DNA of 64,000 nucleotides, from contig PNKV01000013.1 of assembly GCA_013822685.1 (NCBI GenBank), positions 13,095 to 77,094 on the forward strand, read 5' to 3'. Source of the stretch: Leptothrix sp. (in: b-proteobacteria). GTDB lineage: Bacteria; Pseudomonadota; Gammaproteobacteria; Burkholderiales; Burkholderiaceae_C. The position numbers and the translations under genes were made by a program. Under the pieces are notes generated by a model. It had not been told where the DNA came from. It saw only the letters and a list, made by a program, of their open reading frames with translations, and made no database searches. Of this stretch, positions 1 through 54,532 are shown piece by piece; within the stretch, counting starts at the first letter, position 1; every line of letters starts with the position of its first letter.

Positions 1-768
1 CGTGAGTTTGAGCTCCTGGGTCAAGGCCTCGATGGCGGCCTCATCCGAAGTCTCCCGCATCACCAGCAACCAGTTGTCGTCGCCGGTGGGTTCGTGCAGG
101 GCGAAGCTCAGGCGCCGACCACCTTGCTGCACCAGCCAGGATGGTGGCGGCTTGCCCGTGGCCATGTCGGCCAGGGCGCTGGGCGTGACCTGGCGCAGCC
201 ACACCACCAGCTCATCGGGGGCCACGGTCTCGGGCGTCTCGAAGTACTGCTGCAAGAGCTTGCGCGCCAAGGGCGTCTGCCACATCACGCGGCCATCAGA
301 AAGGCGCACCGTCATCGATGCGTGGCCAAAAGCGTCCAGGGCATTGCGGGCCTGGCGCGCCTGCCGGGCACTCGCCATGTGAGAGACGATGCGGGCCAGC
401 ACTTCCCGGGGCCGGATCGGCTTGGTGACGTAGTCCACGCCGCCAGCGTCGAAGGCGGCCACCACGTGCTCGGTCTCGGTCAGGCCCGTCATGAAGACGA
501 TGGGGATGTGGCTGGTTTCGGGCTGGGCTTTCAGGCGGCGCGCCACTTCGAAACCATCCATGCCGGGCATCAGGGCGTCGAGCAGGATGATGTCGGGCAC
601 GGACTGGCTGGCGCGCTGCAGAGCGGCTTCGCCATGCGTGGCGACCAGCACCGTGTAGCCGGCTTCGTCCAGCGCATCGTGCAAGAGCGAGAGGTTGTCG
701 GGCACGTCATCAACGATGAGCACGACGTCGGTGCGGCTGCGGTCGAGTCGGTCAAGCATCGGGATCAT
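1..768 (-). CDS. Response regulator (REC plus probable LuxR-type HTH), 3'-truncated by the window edge
   Basis: Manual translation from ATG 768: MIPMLDRLDRSRTDVVLIVDDVPDN...IILLDALMPGMDG...DYVTKP...EALTQELKLT. Start overlaps the kinase stop (ATGA). Absent from the ORF track because it has no stop in the window. The HTH itself lies beyond the edge and is inferred. Confidence 0.85.
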   Translation of the reverse strand, partial: MIPMLDRLDRSRTDVVLIVDDVPDNLSLLHDALDEAGYTVLVATHGEAALQRASQSVPDIILLDALMPGMDGFEVARRLKAQPETSHIPIVFMTGLTETEHVVAAFDAGGVDYVTKPIRPREVLARIVSHMASARQARQARNALDAFGHASMTVRLSDGRVMWQTPLARKLLQQYFETPETVAPDELVVWLRQVTPSALADMATGKPPPSWLVQQGGRRLSFALHEPTGDDNWLLVMRETSDEAAIEALTQELKLT

Positions 769-3700
769 GGCCGCGATTGTGCATGGAACTGCACCAACGC
801 CCGCTTGACGGCATCGGCCAAGGCGTCCAGCTGGAACTGCCTGGCCAGGTGGCGCATGTTTTGCACAAAGACTTCGCATTGCGGTTCGGCCGCCGCGATC
901 TGGTCCAGTGTTTTGTGCACACCGCGCACGTAGCCCGCGTCGATCAGCTCTTCCAGGCTTTGCAAGGCCTTGAGCGATGGCAGCACCTGCATGCCGTCGC
1001 CCGCCGCACTTTGCGCGACGGCGTCCAGCATGGGCTTGCCAATGGCGGGGCGCTGAGCCTCGATCCACTGCAAGGTCAGGCGCCGACCCAACCAATCCAG
1101 CAGTTCCGCCTTGCGCACGGGCTTGACGATGAAGTCTTCGAAGGTGATGCCCACGTCGTTGTCCATGCCCTTGTCAAAGGCGTTGGCCGACACGATCGCG
1201 ATCGGCGCGCGGCTCAGTCCTTCCTGCTTGATGGTGCGGATCGTGGCCCAGCCGTCGATGCCCGGCATGGCCAGGTCCATCAGCACCGCATGGGGCTCTT
1301 GCGCCTGCGGGCAACTGCGCAACAGGGCCAGGCACTCCAAACCTGACGCCAGCGGGGTGACATCAAAGCCCAAAGGCTCGAGGATGCGCACGAGCAGGCC
1401 ACGGTCGGCCTCTTCGTTGTCCACCACCCAGACCCGGCGGCGGTCGCCCACATAGCCGGTGCGCACGCCCAAGGGCACGCTGCGATCGGCGTGCGTGAGC
1501 CGCACCTGCGGCAGGAACAGGCGGATGCGGAACACCGTGCCCTGCCCCTCCACGCTGCTGACCTTCATCTCACCGCCCATCAGGTCGGTGAGCATTTTGC
1601 TGATGGTCAGCCCCAGGCCGGTGCCTGCGACGGCCGAGCCCGCCACCGATGAACCGCGCGCGAAGGGCTCGAAGACCCGCTCAAGTTCGTCAATCGGGAT
1701 GCCCGGCCCGGTGTCGATGACCTCGACCAAGGCAATCTCGCGCGCATAGCTGACGCGGAATTTCACCCCACCGTGCGCTGTGAACTTCACCGCGTTGCCC
1801 AACACATTGAACAGGATCTGACGCACGCGTCGCTCGTCGGCCCGCACCACCTCGGGCAAGGCCGCGTCCAGCTCCACGTCAAAGCTCAGGCCCTTGCTCA
1901 AGGCCTGAGGTTGCAGCATGTTGATGATCTGCTGCAGCGACTCGAACAGGCGCATGGGCTTGACGTCCAGCGTCAGCTTGCCGCTTTCTATGCGGGCGAT
2001 GTCCAGCGTGCCTTCAATCAAGGACAGCAAATGGTCGCCGCCACGCTTGATGACCTCCACCCCATGCCTGGCATGCTCGGGCAGGCGTTGATCCTCGTCC
2101 AGCAACTGCGCATAGCCCAGGATGCTGTTGAGCGGCGTGCGCAGCTCGTGGCTGATGGTCGAGATGTAGCGGCTCTTGGCCTGGTTAGCCTGCTCGGCAG
2201 TGCGCTTGGCCTGCTGCAGTTTTTCGTCAGTGCGCCGGTGCAGTTCCACCTCGCGCACCAGCAGGTGCGTCTGGCGGTTGGATTCTTCTTGCGCCACCTT
2301 GCGGCTCTTGTGCGCCAGCACCAGCCACCAACCCACCACCCCCGAGATCACCAACAGCACCGCAAACACCTTGAGGAAGCCGCTTTGCAGCGCATCGGTC
2401 AGGCCTGCTGTGGCCGGTTGGTCCAAAGCCCGCAACTCGTGGTTGAAGATCAGCGCGAACAGCAACGCCAGCGCGGGCACCAAGCCCCCCATCAACAGCA
2501 TGAAATGGCCAAGCTCGGTGTCCAGCCGTTGCCAGACAAAGGCCGGCAGCAGCTTCTTACCCACGGCCCGCCATTGCACCGACCAGCGTGCTTCAGGCTT
2601 GCACAAATCATGGCAGCGCGCATCCAGCGAACAGCACAGCGAGCAGATGAAGCCCTGGTAGGCCGGGCAATGCGCCATGTCCTCGCCTTCGTACTCGCGC
2701 TCGCACACCGTGCAGCGGTAGACGCCCTTGGTGCCTTGCCGGGACGGGCAGGTCTCGCAATTGGGTGCCTTGAGCTCGGCTTGGCGGGCGATGTAGTAAC
2801 GCCCCTGGGTGAACCAGGCGATCAGCGGCGAGGTGACCAGCGCCGTGACCAGTGCGATCAGTGCTGAGAAGGCCTGCGCCATCGGCCCCAGCCAGCCCAG
2901 GTAGGCCGTGACCGACAGGATGGACGCCGCGCTCATGGCACCCACGCCCACCGGGTTCACGTCATACAAATAAGCCCGCTTGAACTCGATGCCCTTGGGC
3001 GACCAACCCATGGGCTTGTTGATCACCAGGTCAGCCACCACGGCCATCATCCAGGCGATGGCAATGTTGGAGTACAGCCCCAGCACACGCCCCAGGGCCT
3101 GGAACACGTTCAACTCCATCAGCATCAAGGCGATCATGGTGTTGAACACCACCCAGACCACGCGCCCAGGGTGGCTGTGGGTGATGCGCGCGAAGAAGTT
3201 GGACCACGCCAGCGAGCCTGCGTAGGCGTTGGTGACATTGATCTTGAGCTGCGAGATGACCACGAACAGGCACGTGGCGGCCACCGCCCAGCTCAGGTTC
3301 GAGAACATGGACTCGTAGGCCAGCAGGTACATCTGATTGGGATCAACCGCGCGGTCGGCCGGCACCGACATACTCAGCGCCAGGTAGGCCAACACCGTGC
3401 CCCCCAGCATCTTGAGCACGCCGGGAATCACCCAGCCCGGCCCGCCCATGAACACGCTGAACCACCAGCGCGCCTTGTGCTGGGCTTGCCGCTCGGGCAT
3501 GAAGCGCAGGTAGTCGGCCTGCTCGCCCATTTGCGTGATCAGGGCCACGCCCACCGTCATGGCCGCGCCAAACGACATCAGGTTGAACCCCGGCGCCTGC
3601 CCTTGTGCACCGCCATAGCCCACCAGGTCGCTCAGCACATGCGGGTTCGCCTTGAACACGTAGATGTAAGGCAGCACCAGCATCACCAACCAGATCGGTT

Positions 3701-4328
3701 GCGTCCACACCTGCAATCGGCTGATGACGGTGACCCCGTGCGTGACCAGCGGCACCACCACCACCGCGCAAATCAAATAGCCCCAGGCGGGTGGGATGTC
3801 GAAGGCCAGCTCAAGGGCGTAGGCCATGATCGCGGCCTCCAGCGCGAAGAAGATGAAGGTGAAGGTGGCGTAGATCAGCGAGGTGATGGTGGAGCCGATG
3901 TAGCCAAAGCCCGCGCCGCGCGTCAGCAGGTCCATGTCCACGCCATGGCGCGCCGCGTACACACTGATCGGCCAACCGGCCAGGAGGATGATCAAACCCG
4001 TGGCCAGGATGGCCCACAAGGCGTTGATGAAGCCGTGCTCCACCATCAGGGTGGCGCCCACCGCTTCCAGCACCAAAAACGAGGCCGCGCCGAAGGCGGT
4101 GTTGGCCACCCGCCATTCGCTCCATTTGCGGAACGACCGGGGGGTGAAGCGCAGGGCGTAGTCTTCCAGGGTTTCGCTGCCAACCCAGGTGTTGTAGTCG
4201 CGCCGCACCTTGACGACGCGTTGCAAGGCCTGGTCTCCCAGCAAATCGGCCGAAGACGCCCCTCCGGCGGGCGGCAGCTCATCAATACGCCGTTCGGCGG
4301 CTGGACTCATTTGGCGTGTGTCTTGCAT
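765..4328 (-). CDS. Hybrid sensor histidine kinase with N-terminal NCS1/APC-like permease domain, Cys-rich linker, HisKA-HATPase and REC
   Basis: About 12 hydrophobic segments, then ISHELRTPLN (H box), NVLGNAVKFT, DTGPGI, GTGLGL and REC LMDLAMP...FIVKP. Start is 4328 or 4310 rather than the track's 4397. Confidence 0.9.
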   Translation of the reverse strand: MQDTRQMSPAAERRIDELPPAGGASSADLLGDQALQRVVKVRRDYNTWVGSETLEDYALRFTPRSFRKWSEWRVANTAFGAASFLVLEAVGATLMVEHGFINALWAILATGLIILLAGWPISVYAARHGVDMDLLTRGAGFGYIGSTITSLIYATFTFIFFALEAAIMAYALELAFDIPPAWGYLICAVVVVPLVTHGVTVISRLQVWTQPIWLVMLVLPYIYVFKANPHVLSDLVGYGGAQGQAPGFNLMSFGAAMTVGVALITQMGEQADYLRFMPERQAQHKARWWFSVFMGGPGWVIPGVLKMLGGTVLAYLALSMSVPADRAVDPNQMYLLAYESMFSNLSWAVAATCLFVVISQLKINVTNAYAGSLAWSNFFARITHSHPGRVVWVVFNTMIALMLMELNVFQALGRVLGLYSNIAIAWMMAVVADLVINKPMGWSPKGIEFKRAYLYDVNPVGVGAMSAASILSVTAYLGWLGPMAQAFSALIALVTALVTSPLIAWFTQGRYYIARQAELKAPNCETCPSRQGTKGVYRCTVCEREYEGEDMAHCPAYQGFICSLCCSLDARCHDLCKPEARWSVQWRAVGKKLLPAFVWQRLDTELGHFMLLMGGLVPALALLFALIFNHELRALDQPATAGLTDALQSGFLKVFAVLLVISGVVGWWLVLAHKSRKVAQEESNRQTHLLVREVELHRRTDEKLQQAKRTAEQANQAKSRYISTISHELRTPLNSILGYAQLLDEDQRLPEHARHGVEVIKRGGDHLLSLIEGTLDIARIESGKLTLDVKPMRLFESLQQIINMLQPQALSKGLSFDVELDAALPEVVRADERRVRQILFNVLGNAVKFTAHGGVKFRVSYAREIALVEVIDTGPGIPIDELERVFEPFARGSSVAGSAVAGTGLGLTISKMLTDLMGGEMKVSSVEGQGTVFRIRLFLPQVRLTHADRSVPLGVRTGYVGDRRRVWVVDNEEADRGLLVRILEPLGFDVTPLASGLECLALLRSCPQAQEPHAVLMDLAMPGIDGWATIRTIKQEGLSRAPIAIVSANAFDKGMDNDVGITFEDFIVKPVRKAELLDWLGRRLTLQWIEAQRPAIGKPMLDAVAQSAAGDGMQVLPSLKALQSLEELIDAGYVRGVHKTLDQIAAAEPQCEVFVQNMRHLARQFQLDALADAVKRALVQFHAQSRP
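4311..4327 (+). promoter_or_regulatory. Putative sigma54 promoter for ureA
   Basis: TTGGCGTGTGTCTTGCA, GG at 4313-14 and GC at 4325-26 (12-nt offset), about 55 nt before the ureA ATG. Confidence 0.65.
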
Positions 4329-4355
4329 AGTGGGTACTTCATCAACGGCCGTTGC

Positions 4356-4372
4356 CGCAATTTCGGTGCCGA
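4356..4372 (-). promoter_or_regulatory. Putative sigma54 promoter for the sensor kinase/response regulator operon
   Basis: Minus strand TCGGCACCGAAATTGCG, GG 4370-69 and GC 4358-57. Confidence 0.65.
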
Positions 4373-4381
4373 GAACAACAA

Positions 4382-4684
4382 ATGGAACTGACCCCACGAG
4401 AGAAAGACAAATTGCTGATCTTCACGGCCGCCCTGCTGGCCGAGCGGCGCAAGGCCCGGGGACTCAAGCTGAACTACCCGGAAGCCGTGGCCCTGATCAC
4501 CGCCGCCATCATGGAAGGGGCCCGCGACGGCAAAACCGTGGCCACCTTGATGAGCGAAGGCAAGACCGTGCTCAGCCGCCATGACGTCATGGACGGCGTG
4601 GCCGACATGGTGCCTGAAATCCAGGTGGAAGCGACCTTCCCGGATGGCACCAAATTGGTGACAGTGCACCAACCCATTGCTTGA
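4382..4684 (+). CDS. ureA: Urease subunit gamma
   Basis: [14 protein letters not shown]...KLNYPEAVA...[17 protein letters not shown]-type sequence. Confidence 0.98.
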
Positions 4685-4704: not shown

Positions 4705-4723
4705 TTGCACCAATCAAGTGCAA
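4705..4723. promoter_or_regulatory. Putative NtrC-type binding site
   Basis: TTGCAC-CAATCAA-GTGCAA; TGCACCA-N3-AAGTGCA versus consensus TGCACCA-N3-TGGTGCA; lies in the AT-richer ureA-ureJ gap. Confidence 0.6.
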
Positions 4724-4759: not shown

Positions 4760-5428
4760 ATGCCGAAAACCTCCTTCCGCCGCACCATCGTGGTTTGCGC
4801 TCCGTGGGCCGCCGGTCTGGCTGCGGCCACCCTGACCTCCGTGGCGCAGGCCCACGTGGGCGCCGATGGCCTGGCCCATCAGCATGGCGCCTTTGACAGC
4901 TTCACGGCGGGTGCGGCCCACCCCTTGACAGGGCTGGATCACCTGGCCGCCATGGTCAGCGTGGGCTTGTGGAGCGCCTTGAGCCTGCGCCCTCAATCAA
5001 CACCAGCCGCCAGCGCCAGGCAGCTGCTGGCCGCACCTCTGGCGTTTGCCGCCACCTTGCTGATCGGTGCCTTGATGGCGCTCAATGGCCTCACTTTGCC
5101 CGGTGTAGAACCCATGATCGCGGCCTCGCTGTTGGCCCTGGGGCTGCTGGTGGCCACGCGCACCGCATTGCCGACCGGCGTTGGCGCCGCCCTGGTGGCC
5201 GGTTTTGCCCTGTCCCACGGGTTGGCGCATGGCCAGGAGCTGGGGGGCCACGCCAGCGCCGCACTCACCGGCATGGTCCTGAGCACCATGGCCCTGCACT
5301 CCGTCGGCATCGGCTTCGGGCTGGCATTGCGCCAGCAACGCAGACGCTGGCTGCCGCGCATCGCGGGCGTCGGTGTCGCTGCCTTGGGCCTTGGCCTCTT
5401 GAGCCCCGCCATCGCTGGCGTGTTCTGA
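4760..5428 (+). CDS. ureJ: HupE/UreJ family Ni transporter/accessory protein
   Basis: Signal peptide, AH..., HPLTGLDHL and HGLAHG motifs. Confidence 0.92.
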
Positions 5429-5772: not shown

Positions 5773-7500
5773 ATGGCCACCATCCAACGGCGTGCCTACG
5801 CTGAAATGTTCGGCCCCACCGTGGGCGACCGCCTGCGCCTGGCCGACACCAACCTCATCATCGAAGTCGAACAAGACTTGACCCTGGCAGCTGGAGGCTA
5901 CGGAGAGGAAGTCAAGTTCGGCGGCGGCAAGACCATCCGCGACGGCATGGGCCAAAGCCAGCGCATCAATGGCCCTGGCCCGATGGAGGCCGCCGACTGC
6001 GTGTTGACCAACGCCCTCATCGTGGACCACTGGGGCATCGTCAAGGCCGACATCGGCATCAAGGCCAGCCGCATCTTCAAGATCGGCAAAGCGGGTAACC
6101 CCGATGTGCAACCCGGTGTGGACATCGTCATTGGCCCTGGCACCGAGATCATCGCGGCCGAGGGCATGATCGTGACGGCCGGCGGCATCGACACCCACAT
6201 CCACTTCATCTGCCCGCAGCAGATCGAAGAGGCGCTCAACAGTGGCGTGACAAGCATGCTGGGTGGCGGCACAGGGCCGGCCACCGGCACCTTCGCCACC
6301 ACGTGCACGCCCGGGCCGGACAACATCTCGCGCATGCTGCAAGCCGCCGAGGCCTTCCCGATGAACCTGGGCTTTCTGGGCAAGGGCAACGCCAGCCGCC
6401 CCGAGGCCTTGCGCCAGCAGGTCGAGGCCGGCGTGATCGGCTTGAAACTGCACGAGGACTGGGGCACCACGCCTTCGGCCATCGACTGTTGCCTGAGTGT
6501 GGCCGAGGAAACCGACACCCAGGTCTCGATCCACAGCGACACGCTGAACGAATCGGGCTTCGTCGAGAACACCATCGCGGCCACCAAGGACCGCACCTTG
6601 TGCGCCTTCCACACCGAAGGCGCGGGCGGTGGCCACGCGCCCGACATCATGCGCGTGGTGGGCGAGGCCAACTTCCTGCCCTCGTCCACCAACCCGACCA
6701 TGCCCTACACGGTCAACACCATTGACGAGCACCTCGACATGCTCATGGTGTGCCACCACCTTGATGCATCGATCGCCGAAGACCTGGCCTTCGCCGAAAG
6801 CCGCATCCGCCGCGAAACCATCGCCGCCGAAGACATCTTGCACGACCTGGGCGCCATCAGCATGTTCAGCTCCGACTCGCAGGCCATGGGCCGCGTCGGC
6901 GAAGTCATCATGCGCACCTGGCAGACGGCCCACAAGATGAAAGCGCAACGCGGCGCCCTGCCCGGCGACTCCGAGCGCAACGACAACACGCGGGTGAAGC
7001 GCTACGTCGCCAAGTACACGATCAACCCGGCTTTGTCGCATGGCATCGCGCACGAAGTGGGCAGCATTGAGGTGGGCAAGTGGGCCGACTTGGTGGTGTG
7101 GAAGCCCGGTTTCTTCGGCATCAAACCCAGCCTGATCCTCAAGGGCGGCTTCATTGCTTCAGCGGCCATGGGTGATCCGAGTGCGTCCATCCCCACGCCA
7201 CAGCCGGTGCATTACAGGCCCATGTTCGGCGCGTTTGGTGGTGCGCTGGCGCAGGGTTCACTGACCTTCATGAGCCAGGCTTCGATCGACGCGGGCATGC
7301 CCGGTCAATATGGTTTGAAGAAACAGGCCGTGGCCGTGCGCGGCAACCGCAGCGTGAAGAAGGCCGACATGATTCACAACCACTACCTGCCGGTGATGGA
7401 AATCGACGCGCAAACCTACCAAGTGCGCGCTGATGGGCAGTTGCTGACTTGTGAGCCAGCCACCGTGTTGCCGATGGCGCAGCGTTACTTTTTATTCTGA
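5773..7500 (+). CDS. ureC: Urease subunit alpha
   Basis: [39 protein letters not shown] and [12 protein letters not shown] all intact. Confidence 0.99.
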
Positions 7501-50500: not shown

Positions 50501-51442
50501 ATGGACCAGCTTGATTCAATGCGCGTATTCGTGGCCGTGGCCGATGCCCAAAGCTTCGCAGGCGCCGCCCGTTCGCTCAAATGCTCGCCAGCCGCCGTGA
50601 CCCGAGCGGTGGCCGCGTTGGAGCAGCACCTGGGCGCACGTTTGCTGCACAGAACCACCCGCAGCCTGCGCCTGAGCGAAGCCGGTGAGCGCTACGTGGC
50701 CGATTGCCGCCGCATCCTCGCCGAGCTGGACGAAGCCGACGCCGTGGCCAGCGGCGCCCACGTCGATCCGCAGGGCGAGCTCAAGATTACCGCGCCGGTG
50801 CTGTTTGGCCGCATCCACATGGCCCCCTTGCTGCTTGATTTTCTGAAAGAGCACCCGCGTCTGAGCGCCCGCGCCATGTTCGTGGACCGCCTGGTGCATC
50901 TGATTGACGAAGGCGTGGACGTGGCCCTGCGCATCGCGCATCTGCCAGATTCATCCCTCACCGCCCTGAAGGTCGGCACCGTGCGCCGCGTGATCGTGGC
51001 TTCGCCCCACTACCTTGCGCGCCAAGGCGAGCCCCTGTCGCCCGACGACCTGGCGCAGCACGATGCGATCGGCATCTCCACCTCAGGCGGCTCATCCACG
51101 CCTTGGCAGTTCGCACGACCGGGCGCGGCCCACCGCGATCTCCACCCGGCGCCCGCCCCCCGCGTGCAGTTGACGGTCAACGCCAGCGAGGTGGCCATCC
51201 TGGCGGCCAAGTCGGGTCATGGCCTGATACGGACCCTGTCTTACCAGGTGGCTGAAGATGTGGCCCGTGGACACCTGCGCATCGTGCTCGCCGATTTTGA
51301 ACCAACGCCCGTGCCTGTGCACCTGGTGCATCCCGAAGGCAGGCACGCCGCCGCCAAGGTCCGAGCCTTCCTGGACTTTGCGGCGGCAAGGCTACGCGCC
51401 CACCCTGCTCTCAACGATGTTGATCCACCACGGGCACAGTGA
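50501..51442 (+). CDS. LysR family regulator
   Basis: SFAGAAR.L..SPAAVTR.V..LE..LG.RLL.RTTR HTH. Confidence 0.95.
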   Translation: MDQLDSMRVFVAVADAQSFAGAARSLKCSPAAVTRAVAALEQHLGARLLHRTTRSLRLSEAGERYVADCRRILAELDEADAVASGAHVDPQGELKITAPVLFGRIHMAPLLLDFLKEHPRLSARAMFVDRLVHLIDEGVDVALRIAHLPDSSLTALKVGTVRRVIVASPHYLARQGEPLSPDDLAQHDAIGISTSGGSSTPWQFARPGAAHRDLHPAPAPRVQLTVNASEVAILAAKSGHGLIRTLSYQVAEDVARGHLRIVLADFEPTPVPVHLVHPEGRHAAAKVRAFLDFAAARLRAHPALNDVDPPRAQ

Positions 51443-51447
51443 TTGCA
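51431..51447 (+). promoter_or_regulatory. Putative sigma54 promoter for the 83-aa ORF
   Basis: CGGGCACAGTGATTGCA, GG 51433-34 and GC 51445-46, overlapping the LysR gene end. Confidence 0.65.
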
Positions 51448-51498
51448 GCTGAAGCTTCAGCTGGCCATTCCGGCCATGCCCTCAGCAGGAGACTTGCC

Positions 51499-51750
51499 AT
51501 GGCAACGACAGTGCCCGACTCAGCAACGCCCGAGATCCAGACCATCTATCGCCAGCTTGAAAAGGGCCTTGGCCACGAACTGGTCAACGACGACAACGTC
51601 TTCGCCCTGATTGACCTGGCCAAGCAACATGGCCACCAATTGCTGGAACGTGAGCTGCGTGAATGGCAAGCCCCCTGCTCCACACCCGACGACCGCCCGC
51701 GCACCATCGCGCCCACTGGCGGCTTCAACAAGGAACACGTCAGGCACTGA
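51499..51750 (+). CDS. Hypothetical protein, 83 aa
   Basis: RBS AGGAGA, GC-skewed codon usage, soluble helical-looking sequence; family not recognised. Confidence 0.75.
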   Translation: MATTVPDSATPEIQTIYRQLEKGLGHELVNDDNVFALIDLAKQHGHQLLERELREWQAPCSTPDDRPRTIAPTGGFNKEHVRH

Positions 51751-53022: not shown

Positions 53023-54532
53023 GCCTCACCGCCAAGCGGTGAAAGTTGCTGCGGTCCATGCCCGCCTCGCGTGCAGCCGCCGCCATGGCACCTCCATGCT
53101 TGGCCAAGGCCGCCTCAATCCACTGCCGTTGAAAGGCATCGGTGGCGGCGCGCAGCCCTTCGCCATCCAGCACCACAACTGGCGGTGCCTCATGCCCTGG
53201 TGCTTTCAGCGCAAGCTCGGCCTGGGCCTCTTCACCCAGGTTGAGGTGAACCGGGTCAATGGCCACCCACCTTGCAGACCGCCCTTGCTCGGACAGGGCA
53301 CGCAGCGCGGCGCGGTTGATCAGGTGCTCCAGCTCGCGAACATTGCCCGGCCAGTCATAAGCCAGCAAGGCAGTTTTGGCTTGGGGTGACAAACGCAGAT
53401 TGCGTGCCCCCAGGCGGTGCTGATTTTCTTCCAGAAACCCGCCTGCCAGGCTCAGCACATCACGGCCGCGCTCTCGCAGGGGCGGCACATGCAGCGGATA
53501 CACCGACAAGCGGTGGTACAGGTCGGCGCGAAAACGCCCTTGCGCCACCTCTTGCTTCAGATCGCGGTTGGTCGCGGCCACCACCCTCACGTCCACCCGC
53601 AACGCCTTGTCGCTGCCCGGCCGCTGCAGCTCGCCGCTTTGTAGCACCCGCAGCAACTTGGCCTGCACCGCCGGTGACAGCTCGCCCACCTCGTCCAGGA
53701 ACAAGGTGCCACCATCGGCCAGCTCGAACTTGCCGACCCGGTCCTGAACCGCCCCGGTGAACGCGCCTCGCTTGTGACCGAACAGCTCGCTGTCGGCCAG
53801 GGTGTCGGGCAAGGCAGCGCAGTTGAGCTGGATGAGTGGCCGATCGTGCCGGGCGGATTGCGCGTGCAGTTGCTGGGCCACCAATTCCTTGCCAACGCCG
53901 GTTTCGCCCAGGATCAGCACCGTCAGGTCCGAAGACGCCACAATGTTGATCTCGCTCAGCAATTGCTGCAGCGGCGCACTGTGCCCCAACAAGCGCCGCG
54001 GCTGCTGGCCCGTTTGCAGCAAGGCCCGCGACACGGCCTGCTCACGCTCGGCGCGCTCGGCTAGCGCGCCAATGGTGTCCTGCTTTTCTATGCCGTCTTC
54101 CAGCAAGGCCGTCAACGCCCGCAATTGGTCGGGCGACACATCGGCCAAGCCGCCGGGCGTCAAGGCATCAAGGGTGACCAAACCCCACAAGCGCTCGCCC
54201 ACCATCAACGGTGCGCCCATGCAGTCATGCACCGGCAGGATGTGCGGGTGCCCCGCCACCAAGCCATCGTAGGGATCGGGCAGAGTGCAATCAGGGGGAA
54301 ATCGCAAGCCCTGGCCGCTGGACAACAACTGCGCCAGCCGAGGGTGTTGAGACACGGCAAACCGCCGGCCCAGCGTGTCTTCGCTCAAGCCATCGATGGC
54401 CATGGGCACCAGCACATCGCCCTCCAGCCGCAACAGGGCCGCCGCATCGCACTTCACCAGCGCCCGCGCGGAGGAGAGAAGCCGCTGGCAGGGCGTCAAC
54501 GCGCCATCTTTGGTCAATTCGACAACATTCAT
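52997..54532 (-). CDS. norR: NO-responsive sigma54 activator NorR (GAF-AAA-HTH)
   Basis: HPRL, PDPYDGL, HDCMG, TLD Fe-ligand motifs; GETGVGKE, GAFTGA, RFRADLYHRL. Confidence 0.95.
   Translation of the reverse strand: MNVVELTKDGALTPCQRLLSSARALVKCDAAALLRLEGDVLVPMAIDGLSEDTLGRRFAVSQHPRLAQLLSSGQGLRFPPDCTLPDPYDGLVAGHPHILPVHDCMGAPLMVGERLWGLVTLDALTPGGLADVSPDQLRALTALLEDGIEKQDTIGALAERAEREQAVSRALLQTGQQPRRLLGHSAPLQQLLSEINIVASSDLTVLILGETGVGKELVAQQLHAQSARHDRPLIQLNCAALPDTLADSELFGHKRGAFTGAVQDRVGKFELADGGTLFLDEVGELSPAVQAKLLRVLQSGELQRPGSDKALRVDVRVVAATNRDLKQEVAQGRFRADLYHRLSVYPLHVPPLRERGRDVLSLAGGFLEENQHRLGARNLRLSPQAKTALLAYDWPGNVRELEHLINRAALRALSEQGRSARWVAIDPVHLNLGEEAQAELALKAPGHEAPPVVVLDGEGLRAATDAFQRQWIEAALAKHGGAMAAAAREAGMDRSNFHRLAVRLNVGFGRS

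Follow-up and report, generated by a model that had tools for sequence, protein, structure and literature searches.

The stretch analysed here (the window, 64,000 nt of contig PNKV01000013.1 from assembly GCA_013822685.1, Leptothrix sp.) carries a urease operon that begins with ureA and, divergently oriented from it, an operon coding for a hybrid sensor histidine kinase and a LuxR-type response regulator. Two sequences of the sigma-54 (RpoN) -24/-12 type, one on each strand and facing each other, occupy the start of the kinase gene and the short gap between it and ureA; we designate them U, which points towards ureA, and K, which points towards the kinase. We put at roughly two in three the probability that U and K are genuine RpoN promoters, probably activated by NtrC under nitrogen limitation, that would fire alternately. 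The evidence carrying this reading is comparative, and consists mainly of the invariance of the key bases of both motifs amid unconserved DNA and of the phylogenetic distribution of the facing order.

Sequence and geometry of the facing motifs

Motif U (TGGCGTGTGTCTTGCA, 4312–4327, plus strand; TTGGCGTGTGTCTTGCA at 4311–4327 when extended by one base) has its GG at 4313/4314 and its GC at 4325/4326. Motif K (CGGCACCGAAATTGCG, 4371–4356, minus strand; TCGGCACCGAAATTGCG as the reverse complement of 4356–4372) has its GG at 4370/4369 and its GC at 4358/4357, and the GG-N10-GC register is exact in both. With the predicted +1 placed 12 nt after the C of the GC, transcription would start at about 4338 from U and at about 4345 from K, and the two predicted transcripts would share approximately 8 nt at their 5′ ends (4338–4345). 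The two -12 elements face each other ca. 31 bp apart, and the spacer between them (4328–4355) holds both predicted starts. Since the ureA-proximal motif is K and the kinase-proximal one U, with predicted starts that cross over, the geometry is that of facing promoters of the type found in the Ecl18kI restriction-modification system. The original prediction, made from the letters of this DNA, had claimed a motif pair at 4311–4372, one per strand and with exact GG/GC spacing, starts at about 4338 and about 4345, and a transcript overlap of a few nt; all of this was recovered, the starts by the 12-nt rule given above. Its description of a 54-bp divergent gap containing two promoters, however, holds only for K: the gap from the kinase ATG (4328) to the ureA ATG (4382) is 53 bp long and contains K alone, whereas U lies wholly inside codons 1–6 of the kinase gene, antisense to it, with the kinase start codon contained in its TTGCAT. 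A search for sigma-70-like promoters or terminators between 3900 and 4900 found none.

The predicted start of K at 4345 would give a leader of 17 nt to the kinase ATG at 4328. The predicted leader region (4310–4345, minus strand) also holds an out-of-frame mini open reading frame of 11 codons, present only in this species group, whose ATG is at 4342 and whose TGA overlaps the second in-frame ATG of the kinase gene (4310) as ATGA, which could represent either translational coupling or a coincidence.

Scores were obtained with a sigma-54 matrix that is our own approximation of the published consensus, and the gene calls behind the genome-wide statistics are crude. U scores 14.4 bits, and 105 sites of at least 14 bits were counted among the 8.4 million genome positions; high-scoring sites are enriched upstream of genes. 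The score of K is 10.3 bits, which is equalled or bettered at 936 to 1,765 genome positions. Facing pairs of at least 9.5 bits situated 32–150 bp apart were observed 43 times in the genome, against about 41 expected. Motif scores alone place the pair within chance expectation and, because such pairs are not enriched over chance, the case for U and K rests on comparative evidence and not on the scores. The window contains a second facing pair of sigma-54-like sequences at 51432–51499 (G000:C13:64526-64593, where G000 is this genome), with 13.8 and 13.4 bits and 67 bp apart, situated ca. 2 kb from a gene for a bacterial enhancer-binding protein (bEBP), the class of activators of sigma-54 promoters, at 53492–53989.

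Conservation and origin of the facing order

About 110 loci were gathered, by searching the DNA of 60 relatives and by scanning GTDB genomes with a protein seed, and a conservation profile was built from 38 distinct sequences of the Aquabacterium type, the genus to which we assign the present genome. The original prediction had named a lack of conservation in related genomes as the observation that would speak against it; in the profile, the GG and the TTGC are invariant in 38/38 sequences, in U as well as in K. U is kept as TGGTCTGGNTCTTGCA, in which the GG and the complete TTGCA never vary. The mean information per position is 1.66 bits for U and 1.53 for K, compared with 0.64 for the spacer and less than 0.4 beyond K, and neither the spacer, whose length is 24–30 bp, nor the stretch from K to ureA is conserved in sequence. 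Judged from this comparison, it is conservation, not score, that lifts the pair above chance. That U and K could be chance matches without function, as might be supposed from the frequency of pairs of such score in this genome, is effectively refuted by the invariance, in 38 distinct sequences and amid unconserved DNA, of eight key bases per motif, and we leave this explanation hardly any probability.

The location of U within kinase codons 1–6 raises another explanation, by which only K is active, U is conserved merely as the N-terminus or translation start of the kinase, and ureA is read from another promoter. The codon usage at these positions does not favour it. Codon 2 is CAA in 38/38 sequences, a triplet that makes up 35% of the Gln codons in this genome, and codon 4 is ACA or CCA in 37/38, which represent 5.6% of the Thr and 10% of the Pro codons, respectively. 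The amino acids at codons 3, 4, and 6 vary, whereas the promoter-critical bases of U stay constant, being fixed by rare codons. As far as the aligned sequences go, U is constrained at the DNA level, beyond the coding of the kinase. Additionally, two Aquabacterium loci (L023 and L025) lack the kinase, K and the palindrome that elsewhere follows ureA (see below), and have a NUDIX gene preceding ureA; in both, U persists as TGGTCTG(C/G)CT(C/T)TTGCA around 30 nt upstream of ureA. With no alternative promoter found between 3900 and 4900, the activity of K alone is very improbable.

The -12 to -12 distance is 27–33 bp in 23/23 face-to-face loci. From K to the ureA ATG the distance ranges from 8 to about 100 nt, whereas from K to U and from K to the kinase start it is fixed, which indicates that K is positioned relative to the kinase and to U. 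This bears on a further explanation, in which only U is active and K is a conserved holoenzyme site in the ureA leader that modulates ureA, as a brake or as a polymerase reservoir, the kinase being transcribed from elsewhere. The low score of K (10.3 bits) and a predicted kinase leader without a ribosome-binding site would agree with such a role, and Samuels et al. discuss promoter-adjacent sigma-54 sites as repressors or reservoirs (PMC3844500). K nevertheless co-occurs with the kinase and is lost where the kinase is lost (L023 and L025), its distance is fixed to the kinase start and variable to ureA, in other genera the corresponding position before the kinase is taken by clear sigma-54 motifs, and no other promoter-like sequence was found between 3900 and 4900. 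We therefore regard the activity of U alone as improbable, and retain the reading of U and K as two promoters.

In one Aquabacterium locus (L030, from genome G020) the control region is a different one: ca. 110 nt upstream of ureA, a sigma-54-like sequence, TGGCTTGCACTTTGCA, overlaps an NtrC-like palindrome, TGCACTTTGCATGTGCA.

The divergent kinase/ureA pair was also found in Rhizobacter, Rubrivivax, Polaromonas, Rhodoferax, Variovorax, Hydrogenophaga, Ramlibacter, and other genera. By layout, 36 loci are back-to-back, 23 are face-to-face, and seven are unclear. The back-to-back loci of other genera have sigma-54 motifs before both genes, usually of 13–18 bits and with variable spacing, exemplified by TGGCATGGAATCTGCA for the kinase and TGGCACCATTCTTGCA for ureA, which suggests that sigma-54 control of both units is ancestral. 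The motifs upstream of the kinase in other Burkholderiales genera (TGGCAYGGAAWCTGCA, 13–18 bits) are stronger than K, and K is apparently orthologous across the face-to-face and back-to-back classes (GGCAYGGAAWYTGC). In a kinase tree obtained with a quick maximum-likelihood IQ-TREE search, 22 of the 23 face-to-face loci group in a single clade corresponding to Aquabacterium, with a value of 96 in the Shimodaira-Hasegawa-like approximate likelihood ratio test (SH-aLRT), and the back-to-back loci of Rhizobacter and Rubrivivax are sister to it; the remaining face-to-face locus, from an unplaced metagenome-assembled genome (MAG), falls outside the clade. On the topology of this tree, the face-to-face order is a derived state, kept throughout one genus. 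Its origin by simple inversion of a back-to-back cassette was rejected, because a back-to-back pair inverted as a unit would remain back-to-back; either the order of the promoters was swapped or U arose anew.

Among the back-to-back loci of other genera, L075, L076, and L104 have -24 elements that directly adjoin, with zero intervening bases (...TGCAAATCCCGTGCCG|TGGCATGAAACGTGCA...), which represents another extreme of this control region. A betaproteobacterial kinase/ureA locus (L087) is also present on a contig labelled as an Akkermansia muciniphila MAG; the locus nests among Comamonadaceae in the tree, and the contig is probably a binning contaminant.

Probable activation and possible competition of U and K

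The genome contains two copies of rpoN, eight full-length bEBPs, and an NtrC equivalog (TIGR01818, 681.8 bits vs. a cut-off of 558.6). The original proposal that both units are under nitrogen and sigma-54 control is supported in part, in that both elements are of a conserved sigma-54 type and that rpoN and NtrC are encoded; the dependence on RpoN and NtrC, the start sites and the mutual exclusion of U and K are inferred. Other schemes were considered and rejected. As a general explanation, the possibility that U and K are two flavours, each read by its own RpoN paralogue, does not agree with the presence of one or two rpoN copies within the genus, and two genomes with the face-to-face layout (G033 and G036, 99% completeness) have a single rpoN. 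Neither is there a local activator gene, since the response regulator linked to the kinase is of the LuxR type, and not a bEBP, and the only bEBP gene in the window is ca. 49 kb away.

A candidate enhancer is the NtrC-like palindrome TGCACCAATCAAGTGCA (4706–4722), with an 11/12 match, in the 76-bp AT-rich gap between ureA and ureJ, 345 bp upstream of the -24 element of K and 376 bp downstream of the predicted start of U. Only 34 sites in the genome, this one included, match GCACY-N5-RGTGC, and a site of this type is also situated 88 bp upstream of the sigma-54 promoter of glnK (16.2 bits; G000:C1:420488). The location of a glnK-type palindrome within 345–376 bp of the -24 element of K and of the start of U makes it plausible that a single NtrC enhancer is shared by both promoters. 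In most of the face-to-face loci, a site matching at 10/12 or better is situated at +314 to +336 relative to the ureA ATG; in the back-to-back loci, NtrC-like sites are found at -130 to -170, upstream of their ureA promoter. According to work reportedly done by Reitzer and Magasanik in 1986, NtrC-type enhancers act over such distances and from downstream, and in Caulobacter the ftr activator sites are naturally downstream of a start site. There is also a weaker NtrC-like match of 9/12, TGCACCAACCCATTGCT, at 4665–4681, 41 bp away from the palindrome and within the last codons of ureA; it may represent a second site or only the coding of VHQPIA. As independent evidence of a second NtrC site, the match TGCACCAACCCATTGCA at the 3′ end of ureA carries little weight: it tracks the conserved coding of VHQPIA and appears in loci of every architecture.

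If U and K are both promoters, U would drive ureAJBC, and K the operon of the transporter-like hybrid sensor kinase and the LuxR-type response regulator. Under nitrogen limitation, phosphorylated NtrC bound at the palindrome (around 4714) would loop the DNA to either of the poised sigma-54 holoenzymes. Sigma-54 polymerase forms a stable closed complex and stays in it until remodelled by an ATPase activator, and its footprint extends from about -34 to -5 in the closed complex and to about +20 in the open complex. Two closed complexes on -12 elements 31 bp apart would not need to overlap. Once open, however, a complex at one promoter would cover the -12 element of the other, and a polymerase clearing U or K would run through the opposing promoter, so that on any given DNA copy the two would be expected to fire in alternation only. 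U, as the better match, would probably hold the weak K low, and a strong U with a weak K would suit a demand for abundant urease and small amounts of the sensor kinase. The idea of a compact switch, put forward in the original prediction, is plausible in these terms. We propose only tentatively that the poised complexes are exclusive at the open-complex step and compete for one remote NtrC enhancer, with either urease or the kinase system being expressed per chromosome copy; if true, the arrangement would be a built-in ratio setter, or a toggle, between urease and a putative urea/amide-sensing two-component system, undescribed for sigma-54.

A number of observations weigh against the reading of U and K as two alternately firing, NtrC-activated promoters. 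All sigma-54 bit scores depend on the approximate matrix, and facing pairs are no more frequent in the genome than expected (43 vs. ca. 41, as given above). K is a weak match (10.3 bits), with a C at -26 and a G at -11, and the predicted 17-nt leader of the kinase is devoid of a Shine-Dalgarno sequence. The candidate enhancer is a single strong site, 345–376 bp off and downstream of the start of U, and the retention of U in L023 and L025, which are without the palindrome after ureA, suggests that U may use another activator site. Finally, sigma-54 holoenzyme at intragenic sites gave no transcription roadblock in E. coli (PMC4591121), so that closed complexes may hinder each other little and the geometry could be functionally neutral. 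Overlapping sigma-54 sites, on the other hand, have been discussed as repressors (PMC3844500).

The possible neutrality of the geometry leads to an explanation in which both promoters are real, and their facing placement is a neutral by-product of intergenic compaction in the ancestor of Aquabacterium. An old ureA promoter between K and ureA would have been lost and a new one would have arisen at the start of the kinase gene, with both firing too rarely to disturb each other. Certain K motifs are only 8–10 nt away from the ureA ATG, too near for a promoter to fit in between, and the length of the spacer varies by ca. 6 bp (27–33 bp from -12 to -12), which indicates that there is no strict helical phasing; the absence of a roadblock by sigma-54 closed complexes in E. 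coli (PMC4591121) also agrees with neutrality. The geometry has been held genus-wide, however, although the sequence of the spacer diverges freely and, to judge from the general dimensions of sigma-54 footprints, at 31 bp it would be hard for an open complex to avoid overlapping the opposing -12 element. For these reasons we consider a neutral placement unlikely, and favour the alternate firing of U and K.

Related promoter arrangements and surrounding genes

The control of betaproteobacterial urease by sigma-54 and NtrC is already known: the urease and urt genes of Burkholderia cenocepacia are NtrC- and sigma-54-dependent (PMC5491218), and a matrix survey predicts sigma-54 control of urease genes in alpha- and betaproteobacteria (PMC12316311). 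The locus described here is similar to that of B. cenocepacia H111 and to those of the survey in having a -24/-12 promoter, here a predicted one, before the urease operon, rpoN and NtrC, and a nearby NtrC-like palindrome, as well as in the logic of an induction by nitrogen limitation. It differs from them in that the predicted ureA promoter is in the first codons of a divergent gene and faces a second predicted sigma-54 promoter, and in that the candidate enhancer is downstream of ureA and not upstream of the promoter.

Divergent back-to-back sigma-54 pairs are themselves ordinary, with nifHDK/nifJ of Klebsiella, zraP/zraSR of E. coli and flaN/flbG of Caulobacter as classical examples. Like these, and like the kinase/ureA loci of other genera, U and K would control two divergent operons out of a single short region, probably with shared activator sites. 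In back-to-back pairs, however, the promoters point apart and can each be occupied and fired independently, whereas here their order is swapped, they face each other, and the predicted start regions overlap.

Among sigma-70 promoters, a precedent comes from the Ecl18kI restriction-modification system (PMC2760811): its genes diverge, their promoters face each other and compete and, as here, one start is opposite the start codon of the other gene. The convergent promoters pR/pL of phage 186 are likewise an example of facing, directly competing complexes, with "sitting duck" interference, in the account of Shearwin et al. (2005) given by PMC4591121. Unlike these sigma-70 promoters, whose complexes isomerise spontaneously, U and K would form closed complexes that await an ATPase activator, and it would be poised complexes that compete with each other, perhaps over a single enhancer. 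To our knowledge, work on promoter interference has dealt with sigma-70 promoters almost exclusively.

U also resembles the intragenic antisense sigma-54 sites of E. coli and Salmonella (PMC4591121, PMC3844500), as it is in a coding region, in antisense, and would drive a neighbouring gene; it departs from them in being only 1–17 nt into the gene, conserved genus-wide, and paired with the predicted sigma-54 promoter of that same gene. In our literature searches, no description was retrieved of two divergent operons served by sigma-54 promoters that converge, overlap and are conserved as a pair.

A genus-wide facing pair of sigma-54 promoters at 31 bp would constitute a natural system for asking whether two poised complexes can coexist, how one enhancer chooses between two targets, and whether "sitting duck" interference sets the ratio of urease to its associated sensor; the sister genera, with the same genes and with back-to-back promoters, would provide a natural control for comparison. 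There is also a consequence for annotation, because the putative ureA promoter is inside the first codons of its neighbour, and scans limited to intergenic regions would miss such sites.

Regarding the surrounding genes, ureA (4382–4684, plus strand) codes for the gamma subunit of urease and is the first gene of ureA-ureJ-ureB-ureC; it is followed by a gene for a nickel transporter of the ureJ/hupE type (4761–5428, plus strand), the real ATG of which is at 4761. The kinase gene (765–4328, minus strand) has a conserved start (MQ...) at 4328 and codes for a hybrid sensor histidine kinase of 1187 aa. About 700 aa at its N-terminus form a multi-pass membrane region without a match in Pfam, after which come HisKA, HATPase_c and receiver domains. 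The gene for the LuxR-type response regulator, with REC and GerE domains, occupies positions 1–768 of the minus strand and continues past the left end of the window (G000:C13:12903-13862). Its start overlaps the stop of the kinase gene by 4 nt, indicating that both are probably co-transcribed. Beyond the response regulator are a FapA-like gene and, further along, urtABCDE.

No known RNA family was found in the kinase-ureA gap by comparison with Rfam. The only match nearby is to 5_ureB_sRNA (103.7 bits), at 5934–6232 of the minus strand and inside the coding region of ureC; this most likely reflects conserved urease coding sequence, and is not evidence of an antisense small RNA here.

The kinase belongs to a large family from Burkholderiales that combines a transporter-like N-terminal region with a Cys-rich linker. 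A paralogue of this kinase is present elsewhere in every Aquabacterium genome searched, in our case at around G000:C1:323389, and the paralogues show 72–79% DNA identity across the N-terminal segment.

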